64,000 nucleotides of DNA from Clostridia bacterium (GCA_040772685.1 JAXGXQ010000001.1:449930-513929); one strand, 5' to 3'. Shown: positions 41,491-60,148, counted from the stretch's first letter. The notes: generated from the sequence alone by a model not told the origin. Numbers and translations are program-made.

Positions 41491-41609
41491 CTGAATCCTC
41501 CCCGAATTTGTTTGTACTGTTCATTTTAGCACGAAACAAGCGACGGTTTGTATCGCTTCGCTGATTGCTATATCATTATCTGGATATAAAGACGCCTTTT
41601 GGAGGATAT

Positions 41610-43658
41610 ATGCCGCTTGACGGAATTTCTACACGCTGCCTTTCGGCTGAACTCGACGTTGCTTTAAAAGACGCGCGGGTTGATCGGATTTACCAGCCGG
41701 ACAAGTTCGACATTATTATAAATATGCGCCAGGATAGGGAAAACCTGAAGTTGCTGCTTTCGGCCAACCCTTCTTTGCCGCGCCTGCACCTGACTACAGA
41801 AACCAGGGAGAACCCGGCTTTGCCGCCAATGTTCTGTATGCTGCTGCGCAAGCATCTGCAGGGAGCGCGCGTACTTTCTGTGAGCACACCCGGCTCAGAG
41901 CGTATTATTGAGCTGCGCTTTCAGACTCAAAACGAACTGGGAGACAAGGTTGAGAAAACCCTGGTCGCTGAGCTGATGGGCCGCCACAGCAATATTATCT
42001 TTTTAAATGAGGACCGTCGCATTCACGACGCTATCGTGCACGTTGATGAATCGATCAGCCGTGTGCGCGAAGTAATGCCGGCCAGGGTTTATATCAGCCC
42101 GCCGGACCAGGGAAAGCGCAGTATCGAAGCCGCAGCTGCAATGCTTGCCCAGCTGCCTGTCTCAGCTGCAGAAGCCTCCGATCTATTGCCCTTTTTCCCG
42201 CCTGAACTGCATGAACGTGGGGTCGAGAAGGCTCTGCTCGAGCTGATGGCAGGTTTCTCACCGGCTCTTTGCCATGAAGTTGCTTTCCAGGCTGGCATTG
42301 ACGGCCGCAAACCGCTAAATCGTCTGACTGACGCCGAAATGCGCCTCTTGCTTTTGGCTCTGCAACAATTAATACGCACTGTGCTGACGGGCAACTTCCG
42401 GCCCAGTGTTTTCTTTCGCGATGCCGAGCAGAAAATCCCGGTGGATTTCCACGCCTTAGCTTTGAGCGACTTCGCTTTTCACCGAAAAATGCCAAACCTC
42501 TCAGCTGCCATGGACCTTTACTACACCGAGCGGCACTTACAGAATGCCCTGGCCCAGAGCCGACAGGCACTGGCCCGGCAGGTTAACCAGCAGTTGGAGC
42601 AGACACGCAAGCGTCTGCTGATTCATGAAACTGATCTGCGTGAGAGCCAGCAGATGGATGAATACCGCCGGGCCGGTGACTTGATTTTATCTTTGATGCA
42701 TGAAATCGAGGCCGGAGCCGACAGTTTGACTCGCAGCGCCGCTGAAAGCCCTGACGGCCTGCCGCTTGAGGTTAAGCTTGACCCCACACGCAGCGCGGCC
42801 CAAAACGCGCAACGTTATTATCGCCGTTACACCAAAGCCCGTGCCAGGGCCGAAATGAGCGAGCGTCTGCTGAATGCCGACCGTGCGGAAATGGAATGGT
42901 TGGAATCGCTGGAAAACGCTGTAGGCGCAGCGGAGAATCTTGGAGACCTTAAGGCTCTGCGCGACGAGATCAGCGAAGTTGGCCTGCGCCCAGCCAGTCC
43001 GTTTGGCCGCGAAGCTGAGACAAATTATTCAGATTTTGCTGCTGGCCAGGCAAACGGCAAAACAAGGGGTAAAAACGGACAAGAAACAACAGCAGGAGTC
43101 AAAGTTCAGGAGCCGGGTAAGCCCGGTAGCCGTAAGAAAAAAGCTGCTGCTCAAGCCAAACAGCGACAAATAGAGCTAAGCCGGGCTTCAGCCAAAGGCA
43201 AAGGTAAAAATAAAGCCAAGGGCAAAGGGGAGAAATCGCCTGCCGCTCTGCCGCCGCGTAAATATACCAGTTCAGACGGCTTCGCCATTTTGGTTGGCCG
43301 TAACAACCTGCAAAACGACCAGTTAACGCTCAAACAAGCGCGCAAGGATGACATCTGGCTGCATGTACAGAAAATGCCGGGCACTCACGTGATCATCAGC
43401 AGCGGCGGCCGCGAGGTGCCAGACAGCACTTTGCTGGAAGCTGCTGAAACAGCCGCTTACTTCTCGCGAGCGGCAGTTGGCGGCGGCTCGGCTGCGAAAG
43501 TCGCGGTAGATTACTGCCCGGTTGCACATGTGCGCAAACCTGCCGGCGCCCGCCCAGGCAAGGTTGTTTATGATCGTTATCAAACAATTATCGTTGAACC
43601 AAAGGATCCGGCAAGGTTGCTGCATACTCAGCCTGCTGGCGAAGAATCTTCTCTTTAA
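41610..43658 (+). CDS. rqcH: NFACT-family ribosome quality-control protein (RqcH / FbpA-like)
   Basis: MPLDGISTRCLSAELD...RIYQPDKFDIII N-terminus, a coiled-coil middle and a C-terminal NFACT-R block (DIWLHVQKMPGTHVII). A GGAGG RBS precedes the ATG at 41610. Confidence 0.85.
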   Translation: MPLDGISTRCLSAELDVALKDARVDRIYQPDKFDIIINMRQDRENLKLLLSANPSLPRLHLTTETRENPALPPMFCMLLRKHLQGARVLSVSTPGSERIIELRFQTQNELGDKVEKTLVAELMGRHSNIIFLNEDRRIHDAIVHVDESISRVREVMPARVYISPPDQGKRSIEAAAAMLAQLPVSAAEASDLLPFFPPELHERGVEKALLELMAGFSPALCHEVAFQAGIDGRKPLNRLTDAEMRLLLLALQQLIRTVLTGNFRPSVFFRDAEQKIPVDFHALALSDFAFHRKMPNLSAAMDLYYTERHLQNALAQSRQALARQVNQQLEQTRKRLLIHETDLRESQQMDEYRRAGDLILSLMHEIEAGADSLTRSAAESPDGLPLEVKLDPTRSAAQNAQRYYRRYTKARARAEMSERLLNADRAEMEWLESLENAVGAAENLGDLKALRDEISEVGLRPASPFGREAETNYSDFAAGQANGKTRGKNGQETTAGVKVQEPGKPGSRKKKAAAQAKQRQIELSRASAKGKGKNKAKGKGEKSPAALPPRKYTSSDGFAILVGRNNLQNDQLTLKQARKDDIWLHVQKMPGTHVIISSGGREVPDSTLLEAAETAAYFSRAAVGGGSAAKVAVDYCPVAHVRKPAGARPGKVVYDRYQTIIVEPKDPARLLHTQPAGEESSL

Positions 43659-44183
43659 AGTCTGATTCTTCCAACGAACGGATACAGCCGCAGTATTTTT
43701 GGCGGTATAGTCCGTCTGTGCGCGCCTGGTTCTGCCCTTCACGGAAGCCAGGGCGGAAATCCCGGTAAAGAACTTAACGCCGTATTTAGCTGCTGCCTTC
43801 TCCCCTGTTTCGCGGATCATTTCGTGATCTTGATATGGGCTGACCAATAATGTCGTTGTAAAAACAGGGATCTTATTTTCAGCAGCAACACTGGCAGCTT
43901 GCTCCAGACGCAGTTGATAACACTGCCGGCAGCGAATCGGCACCGGTTCATCGGTAGCCAGCCAGGGCACTTCATCATAGGCCGGGTCGACAATTACGGG
44001 AAAACCCAGTAGTTCGGCAAGCTGCAGCAAGTTGTCGCGCCTGCGGGTCCACTCGATAAGCGGATGAATATTTGGATTATAAAAATAACCTTGCAGCACT
44101 TCGCCCTCGGCCAGTAAAGTCCGGGCAGGATACTCGGCACATGGTCCGCAGCAGGCATGCAACAGGATAGTCGGTTTTGTCAT
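43588..44183 (-). pseudogene. queH: epoxyqueuosine reductase QueH (DUF208), apparent 1-nt frameshift
   Basis: The N-terminus LLHACCGPCAEYP and the RCRQCYQLRLE motif are intact. After KYGVKFF the conserved C-terminus YRDFRPGFREGQNQARTDGLYRQKYCGCIRSLEE continues in the +1 frame, behind a TTT run at 43767-43769. That frame stops at 43588. Confidence 0.75.
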
Positions 44184-44251: not shown

Positions 44252-45358
44252 TTAGTTTAGTTCTTCCAGCGACATTTGTTCGTTCTCAGGGCTGCCATTG
44301 CCGTTTGTGCCCGTGCCGTAGCCTTTCAGTTTCAAATCATATTTATCTGGTACCGGCAGTCCCAGGTGTTCAAAAGCCAGATGCGTCAGCACGCGGCCGC
44401 GCGGTGTTTTGGCCAGATAACCCAGCTGCATCAGGTAGGGCTCATAGATATCTTCGATAGTCACCGGATCTTCGCCGGTGCAGGCGGCCAGCGTCTCCAG
44501 GCCCACAGGACCGCCGCCGAACATCTCGGCCATGCTTTGCAGCATCCGCCGGTCTGTAGCATCCAGGCCTTTACTGTCGATGTCCAGCGCATTCAGTCCA
44601 TACTCGGCAATCGCACTGTCAATAGTGTGGCTGCCACGTACCTGGGCAAAGTCGCGCATCCGCTTCAGCAGCCGGATCGCAATACGCGGTGTGCCGCGCG
44701 AGCGATTGGCGATTTCAGCCAATCCATCCGGTGTAATTCCAATGTTCAGAATCGCGGCGTCGCGCAACAGGATCTGGCTGATTTCGTCGGGAGTATAAAT
44801 TTCCAGCCGGTGAATCATGCCGAAGCGGTCACGCAGCGGCGCTGTCAGCAAACCGGCGCGGGTTGTAGCTCCAATCAAGGTAAAATGCGGTAAATCCAAA
44901 CGAATCGAACGGGCGCTTGGGCCTTTGCCGATCATGATATCAAGCGCGTAATCCTCCAGCGCCGGGTAAAGAATTTCTTCAACTGAGCGGTTAAGACGGT
45001 GGATTTCATCGATAAATAAAACGTCGCGATCGGTTAGGTTCGTCAGTATCGCTGCCAGATCACCGGGCTTTTCGATCGCCGGACCGGTAGTGATTTTCAT
45101 GGTAACGCCAAGCTCATTGGCGATAATCCCGGCCAAAGTTGTCTTGCCCAGTCCGGGAGGGCCATAAAGCAGTACGTGATCCAGCGCTTCGCCGCGCATC
45201 TCGGCAGCTTTTATAAAAACCTGAAGGTTTTCCTTGACCTTGGTCTGGCCGAAGTATTCCCCCCAACGCGTGGGGCGCAAACTGGCCTCATCGTGGTCCT
45301 CAGGAATCCGTTCCCTGGTTGTCAGGCTTTCATTGAAATCATCGTCATCAAAAAGCAT
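44252..45358 (-). CDS. ruvB: Holliday junction branch-migration helicase RuvB
   Basis: Walker [10 protein letters not shown], Walker [10 protein letters not shown] and sensor regions. The ATG at 45358 follows an AGGAG RBS. Confidence 0.95.
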
Positions 45359-45468
45359 CGCTTGTTGTCTCCTGTTGCAAAAAAGCTGCGCCAAAGCGCC
45401 CAGCAACCTCGCTGGGAAATTATGTCGCCACTTGTAGAATTATGTCGCTGCTTGCGTGTCGGCCAGGT

Positions 45469-46070
45469 TTACTTCATCATTTGGCGCAGGCCGAGTTTGA
45501 TCAGTTCTTCCAGCTCCTGATCGCCGTCATCCACAGCTTTAATTGCCTGAGAGGCCTCACCAGAACTGTAACCAAGCACCATCAGGGCGCTGATTGCTTC
45601 CTGTTGGCGGCTTTGTGGTCTGCCGGCGGCAATATCGCTACCGTCAAGCGTGGTTGGATCTATCCCCTCCGCGCCCTTGATCTTGTCCTTGAGTTCAAGG
45701 ATAAGACGCTCGGCGCCCTTTTTACCAACTCCGCGCACGCGGGTAATTGTCTTAATGTCACCCGTGATAACTGCCAGCGCAAATTCGCCGGGCGAGAGAG
45801 TGCCAACCATGGCGCTGGCCACCTTGGGGCCGATACCGCTGACCGTAATCAGCAGTTCAAACATGGAGCGGTCTTCCTGCGTCGGAAAACCATAGAGCAT
45901 CAGGATGTCCTCCCGGACATGCAGATAGGTAAAAACGGTTATATCCTTGCCGACAGCGCCAAAGCGCTCCAGCAATTCCGGCGCGGCCTGCACCTGATAA
46001 CCGATGTTATTGTTCTCAACTACAATGCTGTCATTTAAACGGGCTGCCAGCGTCCCTTTCAGATAGGCGT
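45469..46070 (-). CDS. ruvA: Holliday junction DNA-binding protein RuvA
   Basis: The TTG start at 46070 lies 9 nt after AGGAGG and gives MYAYLKGTL. HhH motifs are present (LITVSGIGPKVA, VRGVGKKGAERL). Confidence 0.9.
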
Positions 46071-46577
46071 ACAAGACTGATAGCCTCCTACTGCTTTCGC
46101 GTTTTTTCTGGGCCCGGTATGGGCGTGACAAATGGCAATGGCCAGAGCGTCGGCCGCGTCATCCGGTTTCGGTATCTGACGCAAATTTAGCAGAATCCGC
46201 ACCATCTGCTGCACCTGCTGCTTGTCGGCGCGGCCATAACCGGTTACCGCCAGCTTAACCTGCATCGGCGTGTATTCATATACGGGCAGGCCGGCTTTGG
46301 CACCGGCCAGCACCGCTACGCCGCGGGCCTGAGCTGTACCAATGGCGGTAGTAGTGTTGCGGCTGAAAAACAGCTCCTCAACGGCCACAACTTCAGGCTT
46401 ATAATGCTCGATAAGCTCCGCCAGCATGTCGGAAATCGTCAGCAAACGCTCCGGAAAGGCCGTCCGCGCCGAAGTGGAAACAACACCGTAATCGATCACC
46501 CGCAAGCGCCCGCGCTGATATTCCACCAGCCCGTAGCCCGTTATCGCGTAACCCGGATCAATGCCTAAAACAAGCAT
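46059..46577 (-). CDS. ruvC: crossover junction endodeoxyribonuclease RuvC
   Basis: MLVLGIDPGYAITGYG N-terminus with catalytic acidic residues; 172 aa. Confidence 0.93.
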   Translation of the reverse strand: MLVLGIDPGYAITGYGLVEYQRGRLRVIDYGVVSTSARTAFPERLLTISDMLAELIEHYKPEVVAVEELFFSRNTTTAIGTAQARGVAVLAGAKAGLPVYEYTPMQVKLAVTGYGRADKQQVQQMVRILLNLRQIPKPDDAADALAIAICHAHTGPRKNAKAVGGYQSCTPI

Positions 46578-46785: not shown

Positions 46786-48246
46786 CTACTCAGCTTGTTT
46801 GCCGGCTGTTTTTGCCAACTGATTGAGAATGGAGGCGGCAGCAGCCAGAAAAATCAGATAATAAGGTGTTGTATAAGGCATAGTATTACCAAACAAGGCA
46901 GAAACAAAATAAGCAACTATTGTGCCCGCCAGAACGATGCCCTCAACACCCAGCTGCAGGCGGCTATACCAGAAGCGCTTGAACAAAACAGCCAGAGCGC
47001 CAAGATAGAACAATAGTGCCGGTATGCCCAGGCTGGCAGCCAGCTGGATAAGTTCATTGTGGGGCCGGTCTATATTCACATTAACAAGCAGATAGCGGGC
47101 GCCCAGATTATCAGGCCCATAGCCAAACCAGGGTTTTTCAGCGATAAAACGAACACCGTTGGTCCAGAGAACCCAACGTCCGGAACCGGCTCTGCCTGAT
47201 TCTTCGGCACGGCGCAGAATCAGGCTGAAATCACGGAAAAGACGCATTAAGTCAGCGCCCAGAACATTAGTATAAATATTCATCAACAATGAAACCAGCA
47301 GGAATAAGCCGCTGACCAGCAGCAGACGTTTCAGCTGATCAGGCTGCAGCCGGCGCAGGCCGATACCAACCGCTATCAGGCCGCAGACAACAGCCAGATA
47401 CGGCCCTAAAGACTGATCCTGCACTAAAGCGGCTGTCTGCAATAAAAAAGCCGCTAGATACAGGCCTCGATGCTGACGCTTTAATTCCGTTAAGTACAAA
47501 AGCAAAGCTGACATGATAGTCAGACAAAGGTAATAACCATAGTGATTGGAATTATAGAAAATACCTGTTCGAGCCCCGATACCGAGGCGCTGGTTTAGCG
47601 GCTCATAGTTAAGCAGCACTAATACAGCCATTAACGAGGAAACCGCTGTCAGCAGACGCAGCAGACGTTTAAAATCAGGCCAGTTTCTCAGCGCCAGGGC
47701 GCTTAAAAAAACTCCGCCATACATCAGGTAGGTGCGCAAGCCCTCGCGGCGATACTGATCGCCATACCAGGAAAGTAAACGGTTATCAGAAAAGAAAAAA
47801 GACAATACGCTCCAGCCAAGCAGCAGAGCAAGGCTCAGTTCAAAATAATGCGTTTTGAACCAGGCGCCTAGATGCAGCTGCTTGTGTTGAATCTGCCTGA
47901 AACCTTTAGCAAGCACAACTATACTCATCAACCAGCTTAATAAACCTGCCTGCTGCAGTATCTCTTCCCAGAAAAAGCTGCGTGAAAGATGGTTAAGCAT
48001 TAAGTTCAATTCAGTATTCGCCGGCAAAGCTATACTCCTGAGCATCACGATCAGGGGCCCAGCCAGCCAATAAAAGAGCGGCAGCTGCCGGGCTATATCA
48101 AGCGAGCGCGCTGGTATATAATCCAACAATTCCGGAACAGTTCGAATAGCCAGCAGTTCTGTTCTGACAGTACTCGCCCGCGCAAGAAAAAACACTGTTT
48201 TCGCACGTAGATTCAAACCGTTGCCCAGGCTGGCCTCGCCGCTCAT
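46786..48246 (-). CDS. O-antigen ligase / Wzy_C-family polytopic membrane protein
   Basis: 486 aa with at least 10 hydrophobic helices. It contains NSNHYGYYL and the C-terminal FGYGPDNLG......RPHNELIQLAASLGIPALLFY block typical of Wzy_C proteins. Its start overlaps the upstream stop (ATGA). Confidence 0.75.
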   Translation of the reverse strand: MSGEASLGNGLNLRAKTVFFLARASTVRTELLAIRTVPELLDYIPARSLDIARQLPLFYWLAGPLIVMLRSIALPANTELNLMLNHLSRSFFWEEILQQAGLLSWLMSIVVLAKGFRQIQHKQLHLGAWFKTHYFELSLALLLGWSVLSFFFSDNRLLSWYGDQYRREGLRTYLMYGGVFLSALALRNWPDFKRLLRLLTAVSSLMAVLVLLNYEPLNQRLGIGARTGIFYNSNHYGYYLCLTIMSALLLYLTELKRQHRGLYLAAFLLQTAALVQDQSLGPYLAVVCGLIAVGIGLRRLQPDQLKRLLLVSGLFLLVSLLMNIYTNVLGADLMRLFRDFSLILRRAEESGRAGSGRWVLWTNGVRFIAEKPWFGYGPDNLGARYLLVNVNIDRPHNELIQLAASLGIPALLFYLGALAVLFKRFWYSRLQLGVEGIVLAGTIVAYFVSALFGNTMPYTTPYYLIFLAAAASILNQLAKTAGKQAE

Positions 48247-49523
48247 ATAAATGTATCGCTGCTATCGGGGTTGAGCACGCTGTTGAGAAAATCGCGAGCA
48301 AACAGCAGATTAACTTCTTCCAGGCGCAACAGCACACGATTGCCGCGGTTTTTGGCCAGGACCAGCTCGCGCGCTGTAATTACCTTACCGTCAGGCGCGG
48401 CCAGCTCGGCCGGGTCCTGTTTGTTTTCCAGGGCAAGTTCAAGAGTCGGGCGATCGTAATACATAACCTGGTGGCTGAAATCCTGGTGATCCAGCAAGTA
48501 AAAGCCGGGGAACTCCAGCAATAAAACCGCCGGTGCCAACAGGCAGCAATTGACCAGTTGCATTAACAAGGGCTGGTACAAAGCGCGTTTGCGCTCCTGG
48601 CCAACCGTCTGGCGGCCAATCAGGTTAATCATGGCCCACTGCCGGAAATTCAACCTGACCTGCTCCGGCACAATTGCCCAGACTTGCAGGGCGTCAGCAC
48701 TGGCGGCGGCCGGGTCCGCTTTCGGCTTGGCCTGATCAGCCGCGGGCGGCATGCCAAACTGCTGCAGGATAACCTGATTCAGCGGGAGAAACTTCTGGTC
48801 GCCGCGAAACTCGTTGTAAATCGCTGTAATCAGCCGGGCCTTTTCAGCGGTTTCGGCCAGTTCCAGGCACTGGCTGAATAGTTCCGTTTCAGCGGCGGTA
48901 AGCTCGGGCGGGCACAACTGAAAAAATTCCAGCAGGAGGAGTGTCCCGAAGCGGCTGGCGGCATAAACGCTCAGCTCCGCCAGCTTGCTGCTTAAAGACC
49001 ATGGCCCGTTTACGCCGCTGAGCGGCTTTTGCTGTTCGTCAAGCAGAAACTGGGCTGTTTGGCGCGGCAGGCTTTCCTCGCAGCCAAAACGCCCGCACAG
49101 CGCCAGAAACGGCGGTGTTTCGCCTTTTGCTGTCAGGGCGGTATTCAGCCGGGCCATAGCTTCGGCTAATTCAACGTGGTAGAAGTGCTGCTGATAAAAC
49201 GCCCAGCCGGTTTGAGCCAGCGAAAGTGTCGCCCGGCGTTCAATAATCTGCTGAATGCGCTGCTGAGCCTGTTCAGTAGCAGTTAAGGCTGAAAGCGGCG
49301 CTTCAATTACCAGCAGCAGGCCAAACAGATCATTAAGCTGGCGCCTGGGCAAGCGGGCCACCAGTAAATCAAAGCCGTCACCGGTGGCGGTGGTTTCGAT
49401 CAGCTGCAGCAGCTCCTGCAGCCTGGTTTCATCAAGCCGGACAGAAAGCTCTTCCGGTAAGGGCTGCTGGCGAATAACCTGCTGGCGAACGTGATGAAGT
49501 TTTGAGTCGGACACATGCAGCAT
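48243..49523 (-). CDS. hypothetical soluble protein (426 aa), no motif recognised
   Basis: A long ORF with no TM segments. Its start abuts the stop of the 988-aa gene (TAAATG at 49521-49526). Confidence 0.6.
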   Translation of the reverse strand: MLHVSDSKLHHVRQQVIRQQPLPEELSVRLDETRLQELLQLIETTATGDGFDLLVARLPRRQLNDLFGLLLVIEAPLSALTATEQAQQRIQQIIERRATLSLAQTGWAFYQQHFYHVELAEAMARLNTALTAKGETPPFLALCGRFGCEESLPRQTAQFLLDEQQKPLSGVNGPWSLSSKLAELSVYAASRFGTLLLLEFFQLCPPELTAAETELFSQCLELAETAEKARLITAIYNEFRGDQKFLPLNQVILQQFGMPPAADQAKPKADPAAASADALQVWAIVPEQVRLNFRQWAMINLIGRQTVGQERKRALYQPLLMQLVNCCLLAPAVLLLEFPGFYLLDHQDFSHQVMYYDRPTLELALENKQDPAELAAPDGKVITARELVLAKNRGNRVLLRLEEVNLLFARDFLNSVLNPDSSDTFI

Positions 49524-52490
49524 TTACTGTGGTCTCCTGACAGGTGCCAGTGCCTGGGGCAGGCCGTCAACAGCGTCACCCAGTTCAGTAGTCGCGTGTG
49601 AGAGGCGCTTGAGCACATCGGCAATATTATGGTCGAATTCACTAACCATCTGGTTAAGCTCAGTGCGAATCTCAGTATTGAAGCTGGTTACAGAATCACC
49701 CAGAGTTGAGCTCAGGGCCTGAATATCGCTGTTGATCTGCTGCGCGAACAGGCTCATGCTGCGTGATTCTTCGCCGAGAATCTCAACCAGATTACGGACA
49801 TCATTGGCAAAGATGCTGTTTTGCTCATTCAGTGAGGCATGAACGCTGTTCACCAGGTCTTCCGTGATGCCGGTGAAACCGAGCGTAAGCTGTTCAATTC
49901 TGGTCGACAGTTCGTCGGAGAAGGTTGTAATCTGACCGGCAAGGTCGCTGATCTGCTGTTGATTCAGCTGATGCGAGGTTTCCATCTGTTCCTGCAGATC
50001 TCTGGCATTTTGTAAAGAGCTGGAGGTGATTTCAACCAGGCTTGTCTGCAGCGTGGTCATGGTCGCCGCCAGTTCGCCGATCGAGTCGGATAACCCAGAT
50101 TCACTGCCAGAGAAAATAGCGCTCATCTTATCAGCCGAGGTACTCATTGTCGCGGCGGAAGCCCGCAGCTCAGTCAGGTCCGTGAGCATGGTCGTGCGGG
50201 TTTCCACGAAGGCGTTGATCGCGTCCTTCATGCCTGCCTCAACCTCAACCACCTGTTCACGCTGCAGCTCGAAGGCGTCCTGGACTTTATCGGCATAAGC
50301 CTGAGCCGCTACCAGCACGTCCGCGGAAGCGATCAGGCGGTTGGATACCGGTTCCAGATATTTATCCAGATAACTGCCCAGGTTTTTGGCCACGTCAGCA
50401 GTCATGGAATCAAGGCTGCTTTGCTGGTAAGCAGCGATTTTATTCAGGGTAGCGTCCTGAGCCTGCTGTAATTGTGTAATAGCGGCCAGCTGCTGGGTCT
50501 GGAAAGCGGCCTGCAAGCGTTCCTGCAGCTCGTTGCTGGCGCTGGCCAGCGTTTCCTGGCTGGTTTGCAAAGAACGTACCAGATCCTCCTGACGCAGCTG
50601 GAAAGCCTGTAAAAGCTCAGCCTGGCGGCTCTGCATGGTGTTGGCAAGCTCAACCTGCTGCGTTTGCAGGGAACGGGCGAATTCATCCTGCCGGTTGCGC
50701 AGGTCGGCGCTGAGCGCGCTCTGCTGCCCCAGCAGCTCTGTGCTCACAGTTTTAGTTAAGTCGCTGGTTGAAGCGGCAAGTTCCTGCTGGCTTGTGGTCA
50801 GCAGACTGGTAAGGCTGCTCTGCTGCTCAGCCAGAGCGGTGCTCCACTTCTGCCAGGAATCGTCAAAGCGGGCCTGTTGACCAAGCAAAGTTTCGCCAGT
50901 GGCCGCCGACTGGCTGGCAAGGGTTGTCAGAATTTTATTTTGGATGCTGGTCAGCTCTTGCGTTACCTGCGTTTGCTGACCGGCCAGGGATTCTGTCAGC
51001 AACTCCAGTTTTTGCTCCAGTGTGGTTGCCAGCTTTTCGGTCAGGCTAAAGGTAGATGCCGCCAGTTCCGCTTGGCGATCGGTCAGCTGAGTCTGAAGCA
51101 GAGTCTGATTGGCGCTTAACCCGGCAGCCAGCTCGGCCTGTTGGTTGTTAACAGCGGCGAGCAGACCGGCCTGAGCAGTCTGCAGTTCATTGTTCAGTTT
51201 TTCCTGAGCGGCAACCAGGCTGGAAACAGTCAAAGCCAGGCCGCCCTGCCATTCCGACCAGGCCTGCTGATATTTTTCGGTCAGGGCGCTGCCGCTGGCC
51301 GTGTTCGCCGCGATTAAGCCCTTCATAGCCTGCTCGAAATCGCTCAGTAACCCTTTAACAGATTCCTGCTGTTCGTTGCTGAGTGTACGGTAGCTATATT
51401 GCTGGCCTTCGGAGAGCGCGGTTAAAGTTTCTTTCTGATTCTCAGTCATCATCGCCAGCGTCTGTTGCTGCTGGTCGCGAATCTGCTCCAGCAGCAGCGA
51501 TTGCACAGCGCCAAGCTGTTTAAAAGACATTTCCTGCTGCTGCAGCAAAGTTGAAGTAACTGTCTCATACTGGTTCTGCAGAAATTTGGCGCCTTCCGCC
51601 TGCTGGTACTCCAGCGCGATTAAACGGTCGCCCAGAGTGTTCAGGGAGCTGCTCATCTGCTTTTCCAGCTGAATGGCCAGCCTGGCCAGCGCTTCCGAGC
51701 TGCGCTGCAGCGGCGGGCCGATAGTAGCGGCAAGCAGATGCTTAACAGAATCAGTAATAGCCGTAGTAATTTCGCCGGCAGCCAGGCGCTCAACACGCTG
51801 GGTCAGCTGCCGGACTGAAGCCAGCATGGCCTCGTCATGGTCTGTATAACGGTTCAGAACTATCGCGGTTTCACCGGCCTGGGTGTAAACCGGCACCTTG
51901 CGCGTGAGCGTGTGCACCAGCTTGCGGTGGGCGCCGGCCAGGCTCTGCTGCAAGCGGCCGCGCTGCTCATAAAGAATAAACAGGGAAACCAGGCCGATAG
52001 CCAAGGGCATAAGCGCCAGAGCGCCGACCAGCGGCGCCAGGCTGAAGCTGCCGGCAGCAATAAAAGCCAGCAGCAAAGCCAGAACAAATAAGCCCAAACC
52101 GATAAGCCCGCTGAAGACCGGGCCATTATTACTGACAGCTGCCTGGGCCGCGGGCGCGCAGCTGGCCGGGTAAGGCAGGCGTGATTCCGGTTCCGGAATC
52201 CAGTTGCCGCGAAAAACATCCTGACTGTCCTGAGCTAAGAGTTTCACAGCACCGCCCAGTTCCGGCAGTTCCTGATTCACCTTGGCTTCCACCCGGGGCA
52301 GGTTATCGATACTGCAGCCCTTGAGAGTATCAAGCGAGGCGGCCAGCGCGTGCCAGCGTTCAGCTTCCTGCTCCACCTGAGCACGGTTACGCCGATACAG
52401 AAAGAGCGGGAATGCCGCACTGGCCAGAATGGCTAAGATAGAAACAACCAGCCACCAGATGCTTGCAAAGGTCAGAATCTCCCCGATCAT
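49524..52490 (-). CDS. membrane-anchored giant helical/coiled-coil protein (988 aa), unknown function
   Basis: TM1 spans residues about 5-30, followed by a loop of about 95 aa and a TM hairpin at about 125-175. The remaining roughly 800 aa are Q/L/A/T/S-rich with recurring Q(Q/R)xEL-type motifs. Confidence 0.65.
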   Translation of the reverse strand: MIGEILTFASIWWLVVSILAILASAAFPLFLYRRNRAQVEQEAERWHALAASLDTLKGCSIDNLPRVEAKVNQELPELGGAVKLLAQDSQDVFRGNWIPEPESRLPYPASCAPAAQAAVSNNGPVFSGLIGLGLFVLALLLAFIAAGSFSLAPLVGALALMPLAIGLVSLFILYEQRGRLQQSLAGAHRKLVHTLTRKVPVYTQAGETAIVLNRYTDHDEAMLASVRQLTQRVERLAAGEITTAITDSVKHLLAATIGPPLQRSSEALARLAIQLEKQMSSSLNTLGDRLIALEYQQAEGAKFLQNQYETVTSTLLQQQEMSFKQLGAVQSLLLEQIRDQQQQTLAMMTENQKETLTALSEGQQYSYRTLSNEQQESVKGLLSDFEQAMKGLIAANTASGSALTEKYQQAWSEWQGGLALTVSSLVAAQEKLNNELQTAQAGLLAAVNNQQAELAAGLSANQTLLQTQLTDRQAELAASTFSLTEKLATTLEQKLELLTESLAGQQTQVTQELTSIQNKILTTLASQSAATGETLLGQQARFDDSWQKWSTALAEQQSSLTSLLTTSQQELAASTSDLTKTVSTELLGQQSALSADLRNRQDEFARSLQTQQVELANTMQSRQAELLQAFQLRQEDLVRSLQTSQETLASASNELQERLQAAFQTQQLAAITQLQQAQDATLNKIAAYQQSSLDSMTADVAKNLGSYLDKYLEPVSNRLIASADVLVAAQAYADKVQDAFELQREQVVEVEAGMKDAINAFVETRTTMLTDLTELRASAATMSTSADKMSAIFSGSESGLSDSIGELAATMTTLQTSLVEITSSSLQNARDLQEQMETSHQLNQQQISDLAGQITTFSDELSTRIEQLTLGFTGITEDLVNSVHASLNEQNSIFANDVRNLVEILGEESRSMSLFAQQINSDIQALSSTLGDSVTSFNTEIRTELNQMVSEFDHNIADVLKRLSHATTELGDAVDGLPQALAPVRRPQ

Positions 52491-52922
52491 GAATTGCCCT
52501 CCCCATCTGCAGTTAAGTACTAATGCCGCGCCGCGACAGCGAATTCAGAAGATATTATTATTTTAACGGAAACCAGACTGGAATCCAGACGGTATAACAA
52601 ATGATACCGCAAATTAACCTGCTTGTCAGCTGAAACCGCAGCTAAAGCAGCAGCGTTTTAGGCAATGCTTATTACTGGCAGCAGAGGGCAATTCGCACCG
52701 CAACCTTCCTGCTGCCATTGAGTACCTAAACCCGTAAAGTCAATTAACAACCAGAATCAATCTGCTCGTTACCTTGTTCATTTATAAGTCATAATATTTA
52801 CATGAAGCCCTAACAAGTTGAGCAATGATTCTTTACTGGACAGATGCAAGTCAATATTAGTAAACTAAGCCCAATTAACCGTGCTATTAATCAAAAAATC
52901 ATCAAATTGTAGCAGTTGATAC

Positions 52923-52951
52923 TTGCTAAAACCGAAACACGTTACTATACT
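52923..52951 (+). promoter_or_regulatory. candidate sigma-A promoter for the pilin gene
   Basis: TTGCTA (52923-52928), a 17-nt spacer, then TATACT (52946-52951). This would leave a leader of about 145 nt. Confidence 0.3.
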
Positions 52952-53098
52952 GAGGTTGTAATGTATCTCAGCTGCAAATAAACTATTACTGCCCTGTATT
53001 CAGTTTATTTGTTGAGGAAATGACATCTTCCCTGCCCCTTTCCATTCATTTTACGCGTTAACAAAAAATGTTTCGAAAAGAAAACGGAGGTTTGAAAG

Positions 53099-53470
53099 AT
53101 GAAAAGAAAATCCAAAAAGGGTTTTACCCTAATTGAACTAATCGTCGTCGTCGCGATCATCGCCATTCTGGCAGCTATCGCAATTCCCAGATTCGCGAAC
53201 ATGCGGGCAAATTCTCAAGTAAGAGCTGAGGGTGCAACAGCGGCCCAGATCGTGACTGCCGCAAGAGTACAGGAAGCTGAAAAAGGTGCAAAAGTAAATG
53301 GTGATGCAGCTACAGCAATTTTAGACGAATATATGGATGCTCCAACTGGGTTTACAATCACTGGTGGTGCCGAAGATCCTTATGAAGTCAGTTGGACAAC
53401 ATCTGCTGCAGGTTACAAATCCTCACAGAAGTATACTGAGAATGTAGAGTTTAATCCAGCTAAATCATAA
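53099..53470 (+). CDS. type IV pilin / pseudopilin with a class III (prepilin) signal
   Basis: MKRKSKKG|FTLIELIVVVAIIAILAAIAIPRF is a canonical prepilin peptidase site followed by the hydrophobic alpha1 helix. 123 aa, ending ...NPAKS. An ACGGAGG RBS is present. Confidence 0.9.
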   Translation: MKRKSKKGFTLIELIVVVAIIAILAAIAIPRFANMRANSQVRAEGATAAQIVTAARVQEAEKGAKVNGDAATAILDEYMDAPTGFTITGGAEDPYEVSWTTSAAGYKSSQKYTENVEFNPAKS

Positions 53471-53674: not shown

Positions 53675-54007
53675 TCAGCCAACTGCTAGATCCGCTGTCA
53701 CCTCTGCTTCCAATTCCATAGCTTCTAGGTGTTTCATGTTCAGGTAATGCTTCGAACCCCAAAGCGAATCTTCCATGTAACGAAGCCTGGCACAGACCAG
53801 CATTAGGGCGGAATAGGCATCAGGGAAAGAGCCTACGACCCTGGTTCGTCGCCGGATTTCCCGGTTAAGCCGTTCGATGGCATTATTGCTGCGGATTTTC
53901 AGCCAGTGTTCACGAGGAAAAGCCATGTAGGTCAAGGTTTCAGCGATAGAATCTTCAACCTTTTTGGCTGCTTCTTTAAGCTTCATTTCCCGGAGTTTGA
54001 CAACAAC
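53675..54007 (-). pseudogene. IS256-family (mutator-type) transposase, C-terminal fragment
   Basis: KLREMKLKEAAKKVEDSIAETLTYMAFPREHWLKIRSNNAIERLNREIRRRTRVVGSFP is the conserved IS256 C-terminal block. The first residues of the track ORF are encoded by the IS21 end. Confidence 0.85.
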
Positions 54008-54172
54008 TGGAAACCACGCTCGCTTAAGGCCATCGCCGCACATAAATAAGGCCATCGCCGCGCACTAAGAAGGCCACTCGCGCGCTCGATGAAGGTCAGC
54101 CTGTAAATAATGTCAACCTTCAGTAGAATTTTATTGCCACCAGAGGTGGTAATTTTTTTATGGAGGTTTGAG

Positions 54173-55618
54173 ATGAGTTCAAACTATTTGTACATCGTGC
54201 GTTCTGTTTTCAATGGCATCAGTCAGAGGAAAGCGGCAAAATCACATGGTGTCTCCCGCGACACCGTATCGATTCTAGTTAACTATGCCCATAGTCGAGG
54301 GTGGATGAATCTTGAAGATCTGGAATCGTGTACCGAAGCGGATTTTGAGGCTGCCATGCAACGTAAGCCGGGTTTGGGAGCCAATCGAGACGTCTCGTAT
54401 GCGATGCCAGACTATGACTATGTTCACGCTGAACTAGGTAAGGAACATGTCACGCTCACCTTGTTATGGGAGGAGTATGTGGCAGATTGTATGGCAACTG
54501 GCAAACGTTATTACGGAGAAACCCAGTTCAGGCGGTACTACCATAGGCATGCCGGAATGTCGAAGGCGACTATTCGTTTAACGCATAAGCCGGGATTGTC
54601 TGTTCAGGTTGACTGGGCTGGCTCTCGTATCGCTTTCTATGACGAAGATGTGGGGGAAATGGCCCAAGCGTCCTTGTTTGTGGGTATTTTGCCGTGCAGT
54701 TCTCTTATTTATGTAGAATCGTTCCGGCATGAGAAAATGCCAAGTTGGATTTCCGCCCATAATAACATGTTCCAGTATTTCGGTGGAGTGCCAAGGACGG
54801 TCGTCACCGACAATCTTAAAGTAGGTGTAGACAAGGCTATCTTCTATGAGCCAAGCATCAATCGAACCTATCAAGAAATGGCTGAGCATTATGGGACGGT
54901 TATTCTCCCGACCAGAATCGCCAAACCGCGGAATAAAGGCGCTGTAGAAAATGCGGTCAAAATCGCATCACATAGGATTCTGGGCAAGTTGAGAAATCAA
55001 TCATTTCATACATTCTGTGAGCTGAAAGCTCACGTGGCAGACGCTCTGGAAGCCGTTAACTCGGCTCTGTTAACAGGGAAAAGCGTAAGTCGTTGGAGTT
55101 CTTTCCATGCTGAGGAGAAAGACTACCTGCTCACGCTTCCCCCAGAGCCCTTTATCTTGTCGGAGTGGACGACAGCCAAAATTCAACCAAATTGCCACGT
55201 CGCCTTCCAGGGCCATTACTATTCCGTGCCATTCGAATATCTAGGTGAAACAGCCGAGATTCGAGCCACGCAAGGAACAGTAGAGATATTTTACCATCAT
55301 CAACGTGTTGCTTCACATAAGCGGGAATGGGGACAGAAGCAGTACATCACCGTCACAGACCACATGCCCCCAAACAAGCTCTTCTTCGCTGACTGGAATG
55401 CGGATCGCTTCATTCAATGGGCTGCACAAATCGGGCCGTCGTGTAAGAAAGTCATCCGCCTGAACCTGGACGCCGCAGTGCACGAGCAACATGCTTACCG
55501 ATCCTGCTTTGGGATATTAGGACTCAAGGATAAATTCTCTTCAAAACGTTTGGAACAAGCGTGTCAGCTCATGTTGAGCCGTAGTTATTCGCCGCAATAC
55601 ATGTGTTTGGCAAGATAG
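54173..55618 (+). pseudogene. istA: IS21 IstA transposase (copy 1), interrupted after about 476 codons
   Basis: It has an HTH N-terminus and a DDE region (VQVDWAG, VVTDNLK). The reading frame is broken at 55601/55602 by the nested IS and resumes after 58093 (SQVKRILERKEDL...). Confidence 0.85.
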
Positions 55619-55730
55619 AAACCATCCATTGCGGAAGCTAAGAAACCAGCCAGCTGTAGAATAAAGACTCCACTGCCAACCACCCGCTCAGGTATCCTTT
55701 TAGTATTGCAAACTGAAAGGATGAACGGAG

Positions 55731-57251
55731 ATGTTAACAGTGGAGCAGATTTATGATATCAGAGAAATGTACTACAAAGAAAGTAGGAGCATCCGCGAAA
55801 TCTCGCGAATTACTCAGCGTGACCGCGGCACCATTAAACGTTATGTCGAACAAAATAGCTTCAGTCTTGATGCTCCCGTCCGCCAGCGACGCAGCAGAAA
55901 AACGGATGAGTATCGAGCGATGATTAAACAATGGCTGATCGATGACGAAAGAGCGCCGCGCAAGCAGCGCCATACAGCCAAAAAGGTCTACGACCGTCTG
56001 GTCGCAGAGCAGCAGAGAAAAGGACTTGTACTGGATATCTCCGACCGGAGCATCCGTACCCTGGTGGCAGAGATAAAACGCGAATTAGCTCAGCAGGAAG
56101 CAGCTTCACTGCCGTTGTTGCATCCTGCCGGAGAAGCGCAGGGCGACTTTGGCACAACCGTTTTTTACGAACGCGGTATTAAATACGAAGGTTATCACCT
56201 CTGTCTGACCTTGCCGCATTCAGATGCCAAGTATACCCAGCTTTTCAAGGGTCAGGACTTTGAGTGTCTGGCTCGCGGCTTAATCGAAATCTTCACACAT
56301 ATCGGCGGCGTGCCCACGGCAATCCGTTTCGATAACATGTCAACAGCGGTAAAGGCAATTAAGGCCCATGGCGGGCGCGAGCTGACAGACAATTTCCTGC
56401 GGTTGCAGTGTCATTTCGGGTTCGAGAGCAACTTTTGCAATCCGGCAGCCGGGCATGAGAAGGGATCAGTGGAGAACTTTGTCGGCTATAGTCGCCGCAA
56501 CCTGTTTGTTCCTGTCCCTGAGACTAATGACCTTGCCGCATACAATCAGGATCTGCTCCGGCGCTGTGATGCCCGTCTTGAAGAAGAGCATTACAAACTT
56601 GAACGTTTGGTGAAGGACCTGTTTACTGAAGACCAAGCCAGGCTTCTGCCGCTGCCGGCCTATCCCTTTGATGCCTGCCGCTATGTGCCGGCCCGGACTG
56701 ATAATTATGGCATGGCCAAGTACCAGACCAACCGCTACTCTACAGCCGGTCACCTCAGGCGCAGCAATATAACTTTGAAGGTTAACGCATATACGGTGAC
56801 GGTGCTGGACGAACAGATGCGAGTGATTGTCAGGCATCCTCGCATGTATGGACAAAAGAAAGAATCCATGATCTGGACCCCTTACCTGGAAGTACTGGCC
56901 AAGCGCCCGATGGCAATTAAGTACAGCGGTTTTTATGAGAATCTGCCCAGGCCACTGAAACGCTTTATGGATGACTGCGACCTTAGCGGCAAACAGCAGA
57001 TTCTGCAATTACTCGCCCGAGAGAGCAGCGACGGTGATCTTGATACCCCTTTATTTCACCTGACTGAGGCTGTTGGCCTGAACCCAACAGACGCTGACGG
57101 CCTGATCGCGACATACGCCTTTGTTACCAATAAACCGGGTCAGCCTTTGAAAGAATCCGTTCCTGAGCTATTGCCGGAAACACCCGGAATACAGTCTGGA
57201 TCTGGGCGTATATGGGCAACTCATGGGAGGGTTCGCATGTCAAAACAATGA
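55731..57251 (+). CDS. istA: IS21 IstA transposase (copy 2), apparently full length
   Basis: A 506-aa ORF with an HTH N-terminus and a DDE core (AQGDFG, IRFDNMSTAV, GHEKGSVEN). Confidence 0.85.
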   Translation: MLTVEQIYDIREMYYKESRSIREISRITQRDRGTIKRYVEQNSFSLDAPVRQRRSRKTDEYRAMIKQWLIDDERAPRKQRHTAKKVYDRLVAEQQRKGLVLDISDRSIRTLVAEIKRELAQQEAASLPLLHPAGEAQGDFGTTVFYERGIKYEGYHLCLTLPHSDAKYTQLFKGQDFECLARGLIEIFTHIGGVPTAIRFDNMSTAVKAIKAHGGRELTDNFLRLQCHFGFESNFCNPAAGHEKGSVENFVGYSRRNLFVPVPETNDLAAYNQDLLRRCDARLEEEHYKLERLVKDLFTEDQARLLPLPAYPFDACRYVPARTDNYGMAKYQTNRYSTAGHLRRSNITLKVNAYTVTVLDEQMRVIVRHPRMYGQKKESMIWTPYLEVLAKRPMAIKYSGFYENLPRPLKRFMDDCDLSGKQQILQLLARESSDGDLDTPLFHLTEAVGLNPTDADGLIATYAFVTNKPGQPLKESVPELLPETPGIQSGSGRIWATHGRVRMSKQ

Positions 57252-57962
57252 TTCTTGAGCTCTGCCGCCAGCTGCGTCTGGGTAACCATATCGCCGAGAG
57301 CTATGAAGATATTGAAGCAAAGACGAATGAAGAGTTTCTCATAAAGATTCTAACGGAAGCTGTTGCCCGCCGTGATACGGAACGACGCAAACGCTATATT
57401 CAGCAAGCCGGCTTTGATCTGATGAAAGGTTACGACAGCTTTGATTTCTCAGATATTGTCCTACCAGAGAGCCTCTCGCCAGCTAGCCTGCGTGCCTGTG
57501 AGTTTGTAGCCAACCGGCAGAACCTTATTTTGTACGGACGGCCAGGAACCGGCAAGACTCATCTGGCAATTACTTGTAGAATTGAAGCCTGCAAGCGCGA
57601 TTTCAAAGTTATCTACTACAAAGACCAGCCGACTGGTGAATCTGCTGTCACAAGCCAAGGGCGAAAACGAACCGAAAGCAAGTTCTGGCGCAAACTGCAG
57701 CAAGCCAACCTGCTGATTTTGGATGAGTGGGGCTACATCCCATTTGAGAGGGTCGGTACACAGTTACTGTTCGAGGCCATATCTGACTGTTATGAGAAAA
57801 CGGAGTGTGATAATTACGACCAACTTACCCTTTGACGAATGGAACACGATCTTCTATGACCAAAAACTGACGGCAGCCATTTTGGATCGTTTGATCCACC
57901 ATGGTTTGCTCCTGATGCACGATGGCCAGAGCTACCGCCTGCAGAATTCTCAGATGCAATAG
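57248..57962 (+). pseudogene. istB: IS21 IstB helper ATPase (copy 2), frameshifted
   Basis: The start overlaps the istA stop (ATGA). Walker A is GRPGTGKTH and Walker B is LLILDEWGY. The frame changes near 57800 (CYEK | SVIITTNLPFDEWNTIF). Confidence 0.8.
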
Positions 57963-58227
57963 CGGAGCACGAATGATTGGAATGAAGCGAGTGGCGGTAT
58001 TAATTTCCGCAGTGGTTGGTTTTTAGCTTCCATAGTGGTAGGTTTTTAATTTCCACGCTGGTTGGTTTTCTACTTGCCAAACACAGCAATACAGTCAAGT
58101 AAAACGCATTCTTGAGCGAAAAGAAGATTTGACGGCAGCAGAGACGGATATTAGCCAGCAGGAAAAACCGAAAGGCTTCCGCCGTGGCGCTGACTACTAT
58201 GGAAAAGAAAATTATGAGGATACGGTC

Positions 58228-58970
58228 ATGTTGAGAAATGAGACAGTACAACAACTGAGAGCATTGAGGCTCTCCGGATTTGCAGATGCATTGGAAGAAC
58301 AATACGCATCCATATCCTTTGAGGAATTAACTTTTGACGAGCGTCTTGGGCTCCTGGTCGATCGGGAAGTCTCAAAACGCAAGAGCAGCAAAATCGAGCG
58401 ATTCATTCGGCAGGCACGATTTCAGAACTCGGAAGCCTGTGTGGAAAACATCCATTACCATTCAGGACGCAAATTGGATCGAAAACTTATTCTTTGAGCT
58501 GGCCAGCTGTCAGTATATCCACCATGCTGGGAACGTCAACATCTTTGGTGCGACAGGTGCTGGGAAGAGCTATATCGGTCAGGCCTTGGGGCAGGCTGCA
58601 TGCCGCATGGGGATGGGCGCTCGATACATTCAATTGCCGGATCTGTTGGAAGAGTTGAAAATAGCCAGACAACACGGAACCGAGCGATGGACAAGGAAAC
58701 GGAAAGAATTTACTAACATTCCATTGCTTATTCTAGACGAATTCTTGCTGTTTAAAAATCGATGACTTGGACTGCCAGCATCTTCTGCAACTTATCGATC
58801 GGCGGAGTTCCAAAGGTCAACGATCGTCATCACACAGTACAACCCGGATGAGTGGATTGCACAGATGCCGATACAAGTGGCAGCGGGAAGCCATAACCGA
58901 CCGTTTGACGGCACAAGCATATTCGATCCTTATTGAAAGCAAGGAATCGATGCGAAACATCGGTAGCTAG
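58228..58970 (+). pseudogene. istB: IS21 IstB helper ATPase (copy 1), multiple frameshifts
   Basis: MLRNETVQQLRALRLSGFADALEEQ start, then Walker A GATGAGKSY and Walker B LLILDEF. The C-terminus lies in three different frames (breaks near 58490 and 58765). Confidence 0.8.
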
Positions 58971-59078
58971 GACATTTTTAGACTAAATCACTTTTATTGA
59001 GCGCGCGGGTGGCCTTTTTCATCCGCGCGCTTGGCCTTTTTAGTGCGAAGGACTGGCCTTTTTCATGCGCGGTTTCCA

Positions 59079-59950
59079 AACAACCGCTTTAGCTTTTTCC
59101 TGAGCAGCATCTTTGTCCTCTTGAGCGTGGATCGCCTTTAGCATCGCAGCCACATCTTTCATCTTTCCTCGGGGCACCACCGTGAAGACATTGCGATAAA
59201 AATGGATATAACACCGTTGGTATTTGGCATCTGGAAATACTGAGTTTATCGCATCCACAAGCCCTAAGCACTTATCGCCAATGAAAAGGCGTGTTCCGGT
59301 CAGACCCCGTTCTTTCAGGCTAACCAGGAAGTTTCGCCAGCTTTCCTTGTCTTCTTTCATGCCTTCAGCAGCACCGATGACTTCGCGCTGACCATCTGCG
59401 TTAACAGCCATTGCCACCAGGATTGCGACGTTTTCGAAACTGCCACCCCAGTTGCGTTTGAGATAAATGCCGTCCAGATAAACGTAAGGATAAGCCACAA
59501 GCAGAGCCCTGGCGCCATTCATCGATCTTGACGTAGACCTTCTGGTTTAGTTTGCTAACCGTTCCAGCGCTCACTTTCGTACCCCAAAGTGCTTCTGTGA
59601 TATCTTCCACTCGACGCACAGATACGCCGGCCAGGTACATCTCTACAAGCGCCTCTTCCACACTGATTTCACGCCGTTTATAGCGTTCAATGATCGCTGT
59701 CTCAAATGTCAGAGTCGCAGTTTCGGCACTTTCAGCTTAACCTCACCAGCTTTGGTTAAAAGCTTTCGTTTGTAATGCCGGCGCGAGTATCCAGACGGTC
59801 AGCCTTGCGCTCATAACGGGTCGCATTCGTCAGTCGATTTGCTTCTTCGTCCAGGAGCGCATTCAATGTGTCTTCTACACTTTGTCGCACCATTTCTCCG
59901 AGTTCTTGCTTTATGAGTCCCTCATTAAGCTGTATAATTTCTTTAGACAT
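59079..59950 (-). pseudogene. IS256-family transposase, N-terminal and central fragments with frameshifts
   Basis: MSKEIIQLNEGLIKQELGEMVRQ (RBS CAAGGAGA) is followed by VEMYLAGVSVRRVEDITEALWG and YPYVYLDGIYLKRNWGG...FPDAKYQRCYIHFYRN. These blocks lie in different frames. Confidence 0.85.
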
Positions 59951-60063
59951 GGCTCGTTCTCCTTGCTCGGTTTTATGTTTTTGTTTTCCACTTAACATTT
60001 TAACCAAGCGAACGGGTCATGTCCTTATTTTTCCGATTGTGCGAAACTTATGATACGTCATCT

Positions 60064-60148
60064 CTTGACGTAGACCTTCTGGTTAAGTTTGCTGACCGTC
60101 CAGCGCTCACTTTTGTGCCCCAAAGCGCCTCTGCGATATCTTCTACAT
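60064..60148. repeat. orphan fragment of about 85 bp from a second IS256-family copy
   Basis: It matches 59527-59610 closely by eye (cttgacgtagaccttctggtt.agtttgct.accgt...ccccaaag.gc.tctg.gatatcttc). Confidence 0.75.

Follow-up and report, generated by a model that had tools for sequence, protein, structure and literature searches.

The described system that most resembles the genes discussed here is the anti-phage defence system Zorya. Type I Zorya of Escherichia coli NCTC9026 consists of ZorA, ZorB, ZorC and ZorD; the tail of its ZorA has been described as a pentameric coiled coil of right-handed sense, some 70 nm in length, and its ZorC binds double-stranded DNA and is recruited to ZorAB via the tip of that tail (PMC11946911). 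In the current model, ZorB-dependent rotation of the ZorA tail recruits both ZorC and ZorD. Zorya has been reported to be under-represented in single-membrane bacteria. Here we describe two adjoining genes in a stretch of 64,000 nucleotides of Clostridia bacterium DNA (GCA_040772685.1 JAXGXQ010000001.1:449930-513929), the whole of which is referred to below as the window. They encode a giant membrane-anchored helical protein and a protein of 426 residues, which probably (we would put it at about 0.6) form a ZorA-like/ZorC-like module derived from Zorya. A third gene follows them, so that the open reading frame (ORF) table gives:

49524-52490, minus strand: giant gene, 988 aa, ZorA-like
48243-49523, minus strand: middle gene, 426 aa, of a ZorC-like, EH_Signature-related family
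46786-48246, minus strand: third gene, 486 aa, polytopic membrane protein with a Wzy_C domain

A preliminary description of this DNA had drawn attention to the tight coupling of the three genes, and the ORF table contains both junctions: the giant stop codon (49526-49524) directly abuts the ATG of the middle gene (49523), giving TAAATG, and the middle and third genes share an ATGA overlap (48246-48243). Measured against the orthologues at the most closely related locus (L006 below), dN/dS, the ratio of non-synonymous to synonymous substitution rates, is 0.06 for the giant, 0.11 for the middle and 0.12 for the Wzy_C gene, values that are approximate with dS at 1.6-2.2, near saturation. Since the ratio is low for all three, the genes are real and constrained, and the trio is under purifying selection. 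The preliminary description also held the combination to be unlike any described system; as stated this stands, except that the giant and middle proteins have remote ZorA-like and ZorC-like relatives.

The comparison with type I Zorya can be drawn as follows. The giant shares with ZorA three transmembrane (TM) segments, probably in the fold of TolQ, ExbB and ZorA, a long cytoplasmic tail of hendecad repeats and a homologous tail tip, and the family of the soluble protein encoded next grades into ZorC/EH_Signature. On the other hand, the window pair lacks ZorB, the OmpA-like peptidoglycan-binding subunit with its TM aspartate, as well as the Snf2-type nuclease ZorD; the Thr and Ser of the ion filter are not conserved in the giant, whose tail is about 1.6 times longer than that of E. 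coli ZorA (about 810 against about 507 residues); and the host belongs to the monoderm Clostridia, with the module chromosomally fixed beside a pilin gene and ruvCAB. The 5:2 motors ExbBD, TolQR and MotAB resemble the giant in their N-out orientation, cytoplasmic loop, TM hairpin and cytoplasmic C-terminus, and provide its best structural matches, but no gene for a B subunit accompanies the giant, PF01618 does not match it, and its TM2/TM3 contain no conserved polar residue. We know of no 800-residue tail in ExbB, TolQ or MotA.

A further comparison is with an operon from an uncultured organism (L014/L015, Logan SRR35521932), which encodes ZorA-like_t1 (PF28082), OmpA-domain and ZorC-like proteins in that order, the ZorA-like_t1 assignments resting on precomputed Pfam annotations. 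Its first and third genes are homologous to the giant and middle genes, and both modules adjoin type IV pilus or pilin genes. In contrast to the window, L014 keeps an OmpA-type ZorB-like gene, a canonical GILGT motif in TM2 and a short tail (567 aa for the whole protein). Relative to L014, the B gene would have disappeared from the window lineage and the tail would have grown through hendecad repeats.

The giant protein and ZorA

The giant can be divided into the following regions.

52398-52478, minus strand: TM1 (residues about 5-31), from hydropathy, followed by the basic stretch RRNR
51966-52124, minus strand: TM2/TM3 hairpin (residues about 123-175), with G131, P162 and G166 invariant and no conserved polar residues
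50391-51500, minus strand: central tail (residues about 331-700), a hendecad (11-residue) repeat array of variable length
49536-50207, minus strand: conserved tail tip (residues about 762-985), homologous to the ZorA tail tip

Hydropathy and composition agree with the architecture first proposed for this protein, namely three N-terminal TM segments and some 800 residues of helix rich in Q, L, A, T and S. These five residues account for 58% of the tail of about 810 residues, in which there are only six prolines. TM1 and TM3 are each followed by basic residues in all four orthologues, and the turn joining TM2 to TM3 is neutral or acidic; by the positive-inside rule, the N-terminus therefore lies outside and both the 90-residue loop and the tail are cytoplasmic. 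Hydrophobic residues recur along the tail with a period of 3.6-3.65 residues, and BLOSUM autocorrelation of its centre has peaks at lags of 11, 22, 33, 44, 55, 66 and 77. Indels separate the orthologues in the central tail, one of them of exactly 11 residues. The tail is thus a hendecad array, for which, given the 11-residue repeat, a right-handed coiled coil is expected. If its helix were continuous, the 813 tail residues would extend over about 112-121 nm, as scaled from the E. coli ZorA tail.

Evidence on the fold comes from an AlphaFold2 model of residues 1-330, built from four sequences. The overall pLDDT (predicted local distance difference test) was 65.6, with values of 79-89 at residues 11-80, which cover TM1 and the start of the loop, and 72-88 at residues 111-200, around TM2/TM3. 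When this model was compared with the PDB using Foldseek, chains of TolQ, ZorA and ExbB made up nearly all of the top 40 matches, with probabilities of 0.9-1.0 and TMt of 0.42-0.53; the leading entries were TolQ 8odt_A, ZorA 8qyd, 8qyh, 8qyk and 8qyy, and ExbB 6tyi and 5sv0.

The sequence of the tail leads in the same direction. In a PADLOC scan of the giant the only matches were to ZorA profiles, all in the tail (best E-value 6e-8), and ZorA is the best profile match of every homologue, long or short. The C-terminal tips of homologues align with the very end of the PADLOC ZorA1 profile PDLC00598, as in locus L011 (2.9e-10) and in locus L009, where residues 494-574 of the giant-like protein match positions 581-661 of 663 (E = 4.2e-8). 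A profile search of the PDB with the giant gave a weak match at the C-terminus of E. coli ZorA (8qyk_A). In a comparison with the L014 ZorA-like_t1 protein, BLASTP matched the last 230 residues of the giant with E = 6.8e-14, and hhalign aligned the tip (859-984 with 430-555 of 567) at 96% probability and E = 3.9e-9. The N-terminal part was also aligned by hhalign, at 61% probability and E = 8e-5, in a co-linear match across 232 columns that starts in the cytoplasmic loop, takes in TM2/TM3 and extends as far as the motifs RKVPVY and IGPPLQ. With tail-tip homology and a fold match both among the tool results, we consider the giant to be a remote relative of ZorA, highly divergent and probably of the TolQ/ExbB/ZorA fold.

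The 426-residue protein and the ZorC family

The preliminary description could name no motif in the middle protein, and scans against Pfam, NCBIfam, PADLOC and PHROG were indeed all empty. Its AlphaFold2 model (pLDDT 79.6; predicted TM-score 0.76) consists of an alpha-solenoid, residues 1 to about 320, followed by a small beta-sheet domain. A connection to ZorC emerges instead from its family. With a profile of the close family, a search of 1.8 billion proteins yielded 131 cluster representatives at E<=1e-3, 70 of them at E<=1e-10. Members of this wider family are mostly about 400 aa long and, where a source is named, come from Clostridia, Clostridiales or Eubacteriales; 93 were aligned, of which 92 are single-linked at a BLASTP E-value of 1e-10. 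The single PADLOC ZorC profile PDLC00615 is matched by 15 of the 93, the best match to a ZorC profile of any kind being 6e-16, and seven match Pfam EH_Signature (PF15611), at best with 2.6e-12.

Relatives nearer to the window protein give weaker, co-linear ZorC matches, with E-values of 0.0025 for P0030, 5.7e-4 for P0037, 0.011 for P0034 and 2e-5 for P0061. The last of these matches the window-family profile over nearly its full length (E = 2e-14) and is the product of the third gene of the L014 operon, ZorA-like_t1 - OmpA-domain - P0061. The window protein itself keeps the family residues E25, R97, W107, Q111, W282, W296, K312 and D345. When the PDB was searched by sequence, none of three queries (close family, broad family, P0061) matched ZorC or gave any other meaningful match, and ten longer family members (492-675 aa) contain no fused domain that Pfam could detect. 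We considered a catalytic reading of the motif DHQDFSH and dropped it: the motif is not kept in the 26%-identical protein of L005, and only D345 is widely conserved. Judged by these sequence relationships, the middle protein is probably a remote member of the EH_Signature-related ZorC family.

Genomic settings of the pair

A Saccharofermentanales metagenome-assembled genome (MAG) encodes a hypothetical protein with 100% identity to the 426-residue one. A word-indexed search of 5.8 billion proteins produced eight relatives of the middle protein and four of the giant; using the N-terminus of the giant, only a fragment from the same MAG was found. Two species representatives, and no more, were matched in a scan of GTDB; the Clostridia that carry the pair are a rare group. 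Pattern scans of viral contigs and JGI metagenome contigs revealed no relatives, and tblastn against plasmids and phages gave no match. The related loci, with identities to the window where these were measured, are arranged as follows.

L006 (66% identity): giant - middle - Wzy_C, with the ATGA overlap as in the window
L001 and L002 (43-45% identity): pilin (divergent) - giant - middle - CoA_binding - 337-aa protein - LytR-CpsA-Psr (LCP) family - ruvCAB
L003: pilin - giant - middle - ruvCAB, with no intervening gene
L005 (26% identity, Oscillospiraceae MAG) and L008: giant-like and middle
L009 (distant): pilin (divergent) - 582-aa giant-like - middle
L011, L012/13 and L016/17: fabD - PepM29 - giant-like of about 550 aa - middle, with no pilin

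This survey of synteny does not bear out the suggestion that the three genes are one unit with a shared function. Wzy_C joins the pair in the window and in its nearest relative, L006, and at no other locus; the conserved unit is the pair of giant and middle genes, because it recurs in at least ten loci while the third gene varies. As to whether the genes travel with pilin or with defence genes, a divergent pilin recurs with the pair in one sub-clade, and other pairs abut Abi genes. L001 and L016 both come from MAG GCA_040772725.1, in which a long-tailed protein (1057 aa) is found at the pilin/ruvCAB site and a short-tailed one (545 aa) at the fabD/PepM29 site, so one genome can hold two paralogous ZorA-like/ZorC-like pairs.

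Variable DNA lies directly after pairs of the fabD/PepM29 type (L011 11831-13752, L012 5791-6324, L016 12479-19435), and contains AbiLi/AbiLii (E = 3e-93 and 2e-14), AbiEi/AbiEii, insertion sequence (IS) elements and conjugative genes (TraG/VirD4-like, TrbL_2). The L002 giant gene (9448-9836, with a run of N and X in the translation) and the L003 middle gene (7003-7280, with a frameshift) are each split into two ORFs, through assembly error or pseudogenisation. The small ORFs that might have been taken for extra components between genes in L002 and L003 were rejected on this account, being split fragments of the giant and middle genes; a 71-aa ORF of L001 was rejected as a component since it is not conserved.

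In the window, the trio had been placed between ruvCAB and a pilin gene, close to IS elements and with an upstream intergenic region of about 600 bp, and ORF and profile annotation agree in each particular.

44252-45406, same strand as the trio: ruvB, downstream
45469-46131, same strand as the trio: ruvA, downstream
46059-46577, same strand as the trio: ruvC, downstream
52491-53098: divergent intergenic region, measured at 608 bp, between the giant and pilin genes
53099-53470, plus strand: type IV prepilin, 123 aa, divergent from the operon, with N_methyl and TIGR02532 matches

The pilin carries the class III signal motif G|FTLIE and matches PF07963 (N_methyl, E = 4.5e-10) and TIGR02532 (E = 1.2e-9). 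In L001, L002, L003 and L009 an orthologous pilin gene is likewise found at this position, divergent from the pair, and the sequence KKGFTLIEL is invariant among the orthologues. A fuller pilus context is visible elsewhere. The order in L014 is PilM-PilN-(PilO-like)-DUF7305-minor pilins, then ZorA-like_t1-OmpA-P0061, then CHASE4-GGDEF-HD, PilB, PilC and pilin; in L002, PilO, DUF7305, two minor pilins and an IS110 element precede the pilin, giant and middle genes, so that the upstream order is as in L014. Since L014 and L002 share this order, the window pilin is best explained as a remnant of a pilus-cluster setting, and within Clostridia the module seems to have had its ancestral setting among clustered type IV pilus genes. 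In a tblastn search with the pilus machinery of L014 and L002, the window contained no homologues of PilB, PilC, PilM, PilN or minor pilins. The CHASE4-GGDEF-HD gene of L014 (9724-11961), with domains of cyclic di-GMP turnover, lies directly after the ZorC-like gene and before pilB/pilC.

The operon has its best sigma-70-like site at 52629-52601 (minus strand), some 110 nt ahead of the giant ATG. Four loci (the window, L001, L002 and L003) share a conserved block of about 70 nt (approximately 52915-52985), which contains back-to-back, overlapping -10-like hexamers, TATAGT and TATACT, on the two strands. The block is situated 115-185 nt before the pilin ATG, a spacing that is itself conserved, and may equally well be a promoter of the pilin gene or of the operon. 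Neither the 608-bp spacer nor the operon has an Rfam match, and no convincing terminator was seen within or after the operon, including between Wzy_C and ruvC; ruvC is preceded by a promoter-like site of its own.

The third gene had been assigned to the O-antigen ligase family, and its product does match Pfam Wzy_C (PF04932), scoring 64.2 bits where the cutoff is 31.7 (E = 1.5e-17, profile positions 1-149 of 149), and has multiple hydrophobic segments by hydropathy; it is 71% identical to the L006 orthologue. Wzy_C is missing from all other pair-bearing loci examined. The slot between the pair and ruvC is filled by Wzy_C in the window (46786-48246) and L006, by CoA_binding, the 337-aa protein and LCP in L001 (11286-13879) and L002 (11357-13966), and is empty in L003, so that two unrelated types of envelope glycopolymer ligase are found in one position. 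We regard Wzy_C as a later, lineage-specific addition that is incidental to the pair; the presence of Wzy_C here and of LCP elsewhere may be a matter of operon-level convenience rather than shared mechanism.

The DNA around the trio contains further features. Directly beyond the pilin gene (53675-59522) there is a nested IS insertion, since an IS21-type insert of about 5 kb, with two istA genes (54110-55618 and 55731-57251) and istB (57212-57835), interrupts an IS256-family (Transposase_mut) gene whose middle and C-terminal parts lie at 59040-59522 (profile 154-297) and 53675-54055 (profile 300-374), respectively. Beyond it, the region 60000-64000 is probably foreign DNA: its GC content is 35-40%, compared with about 50% elsewhere in the window, and a 455-aa ORF there (60206-61573, minus strand) has no Pfam match. 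On the other side of the ruv genes, the queH ORF (286 aa, 43323-44183) overlaps a convergent NFACT-family gene (41565-43658) by about 335 nt; since QueH is 198-221 aa long in related loci, its true start is probably further downstream.

Probable loss of the motor and competing explanations

There is no ZorB-like ORF within or around the trio, and when the entire window was searched by tblastn with the OmpA/ZorB-like protein of L014, nothing matched. ZorD is absent, the pair being followed in the window by Wzy_C and ruvC, and no helicase or nuclease gene comes after the pair in any relative locus examined. E. coli ZorA uses Thr147 and Ser184 in its ion path (PMC11946911); among giant orthologues TM2/TM3 contain no invariant polar residue, and in a low-confidence hhalign alignment the Thr of the L014 GILGT motif is paired with Gly, Ala or Val. 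Even where a B gene remains, in L014 (7569-8390), the TM segment of its product, WMSFTNVMIAVLLIF, has no acidic residue, and when aligned by eye this ZorB-like TM (WMSFTNVMIAVLL) has an apparent Asn at the position of the essential Asp of MotB and ZorB. The D26N substitution inactivates E. coli ZorB (PMC11946911). Between them, the missing ZorB-like gene, the lack of a conserved polar residue and the L014 Asn suggest that the motor had already ceased to function by the time the B gene disappeared.

The absence of ZorB and of ZorD, just described, counts against derivation of the pair from Zorya, and other results do so too. For the giant, the Foldseek E-values are only about 1e-2 and come from a model with a pLDDT of 65.6; the TM domain matches neither Pfam MotA_ExbB (PF01618) nor the TM part of the PADLOC ZorA profiles; the coiled-coil profiles of LmuB and JetC also weakly match its homologues, meaning that part of the tail signal is compositional; and precomputed Pfam lists PF28082 for the L014 protein and for none of the homologues of the giant, PF01442 being the sole such match of P0011, which is 100% identical to it. 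For the 426-residue protein, Foldseek found only generic HEAT/ARM alpha-solenoids with TM-scores below 0.3 and ZorC outside the top 50, the protein itself matches no ZorC or EH_Signature profile of Pfam or PADLOC, and it has Gln at the family-consensus His305. Finally, the loci are chromosomally fixed, their synteny is conserved, and collections of plasmids, phages and viruses contain none of them, unlike a typical mobile defence system.

The most serious competitor, which we think improbable though well short of negligible, is that the pair is an accessory module of type IV pili rather than a defence system, a membrane scaffold or regulator encoded in the pilus cluster and coupling for example pilus activity, DNA uptake or cyclic di-GMP to a cytoplasmic DNA-binding partner, with its likeness to Zorya a matter of ancestry only. 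It is favoured by the pilin gene that adjoins the pair divergently in the window, in L001, L002 and L003 and also in the distant L009, and by the position of the L002 and L014 modules after PilM/N/O, DUF7305 and minor pilins, with CHASE4-GGDEF-HD, PilB and PilC following in L014. Also in its favour are the chromosomal, vertically inherited synteny without plasmid or phage copies, the absence of a nuclease effector and an L014 ZorB-like protein seemingly without the essential TM Asp. However, the pairs of L011, L012/13 and L016/17 have no nearby pilus genes and abut AbiL/AbiE or conjugative-element genes, the window holds no pilus machinery, and adjacency within one clade may represent inherited synteny rather than functional linkage.

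The pilin gene nearby could also bring to mind an envelope-glycan operon of three genes, in which Wzy_C would act on pilin or wall as an O-oligosaccharyltransferase of the PglL/TfpO kind or as a glycopolymer ligase, with the other two proteins as its regulators or scaffold. Translational coupling of Wzy_C by ATGA in the window and L006 is consistent with this, as is the LCP ligase in the same downstream slot of L001 and L002. In Pseudomonas, tfpO/pilO lies near a pilin gene, and among Wzy_C ligases and oligosaccharyltransferases (WaaL, PglL, TfpO/PilO) the third gene is comparable in having a full-length Wzy_C domain near a pilin gene. Nevertheless, unlike TfpO/PilO it is not directly downstream of the pilin gene and lies on the opposite strand; it is lacking from every other pair locus, with the L003 slot empty; no glycosyltransferase, flippase, sugar-precursor or other glycan-synthesis genes are adjacent; and only the generic Wzy_C domain was detected, with no relative of solved structure. 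We therefore hold a glycan operon to be quite unlikely. Less credible again, to the point of being very hard to sustain, is the idea that the giant is a generic membrane-anchored coiled coil, cytoskeletal or division-related and EzrA- or apolipoprotein-like, whose resemblance to Zorya is an artefact. It draws on the Pfam matches of the giant (Apolipoprotein, Baculo_PEP_C, EzrA, BAR and similar), all below cutoff, on the modest Foldseek E-values and on a 3.6 period that is common among helical proteins. Against it, the tail-tip matches are specific and run end-to-end, the partner gene points independently to Zorya through ZorC, one relative operon unites ZorA-like_t1, OmpA and the 426-aa family, and TolQ, ExbB and ZorA dominate the fold matches.

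Returning to a ZorA-like/ZorC-like module, we think that, with neither ZorB nor ZorD beside the pair and the ion-path Thr unconserved, it is most likely a static or conformational scaffold or sensor rather than an ion-driven motor. The giant would probably form a membrane pentamer whose hendecad tails probably bundle in a right-handed manner and, if continuous, extend about 110-120 nm from the membrane through the cytoplasm. As in E. coli Zorya, the conserved tip would be likely to dock or control the ZorC-like solenoid protein, which may itself bind DNA, and the signal would be conformational or positional, not rotary. As a specific mechanism, such a rotor-less scaffold or sensor linking membrane to cytoplasm can be offered only tentatively. 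The pair would serve either in defence or in a process linked to pili.

A rather doubtful extension of these ideas is that the pair represents an undescribed branch of Zorya in monoderm Clostridia, born in pilus clusters, in which ZorB decayed, as in the Asp-to-Asn change of L014, and was then lost while the tail expanded in hendecad units to about 120 nm. If this were true, a ZorA tail and ZorC-like partner could work without an ion-driven rotor and without ZorD, and the pair, linked to pili, might sense incoming DNA or pilus-dependent phage. It is pure speculation that the N-terminal helix of the pilin, with its Glu5, might even take the place of ZorB in plugging the pentamer. Given a Clostridia pair that lacks both ZorB and a nuclease, the tail/ZorC part of Zorya may function independently of the motor or, alternatively, Zorya may have non-defence relatives linked to pili. 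In either case it would offer a natural minimal system for probing the roles of the tail and of ZorC.

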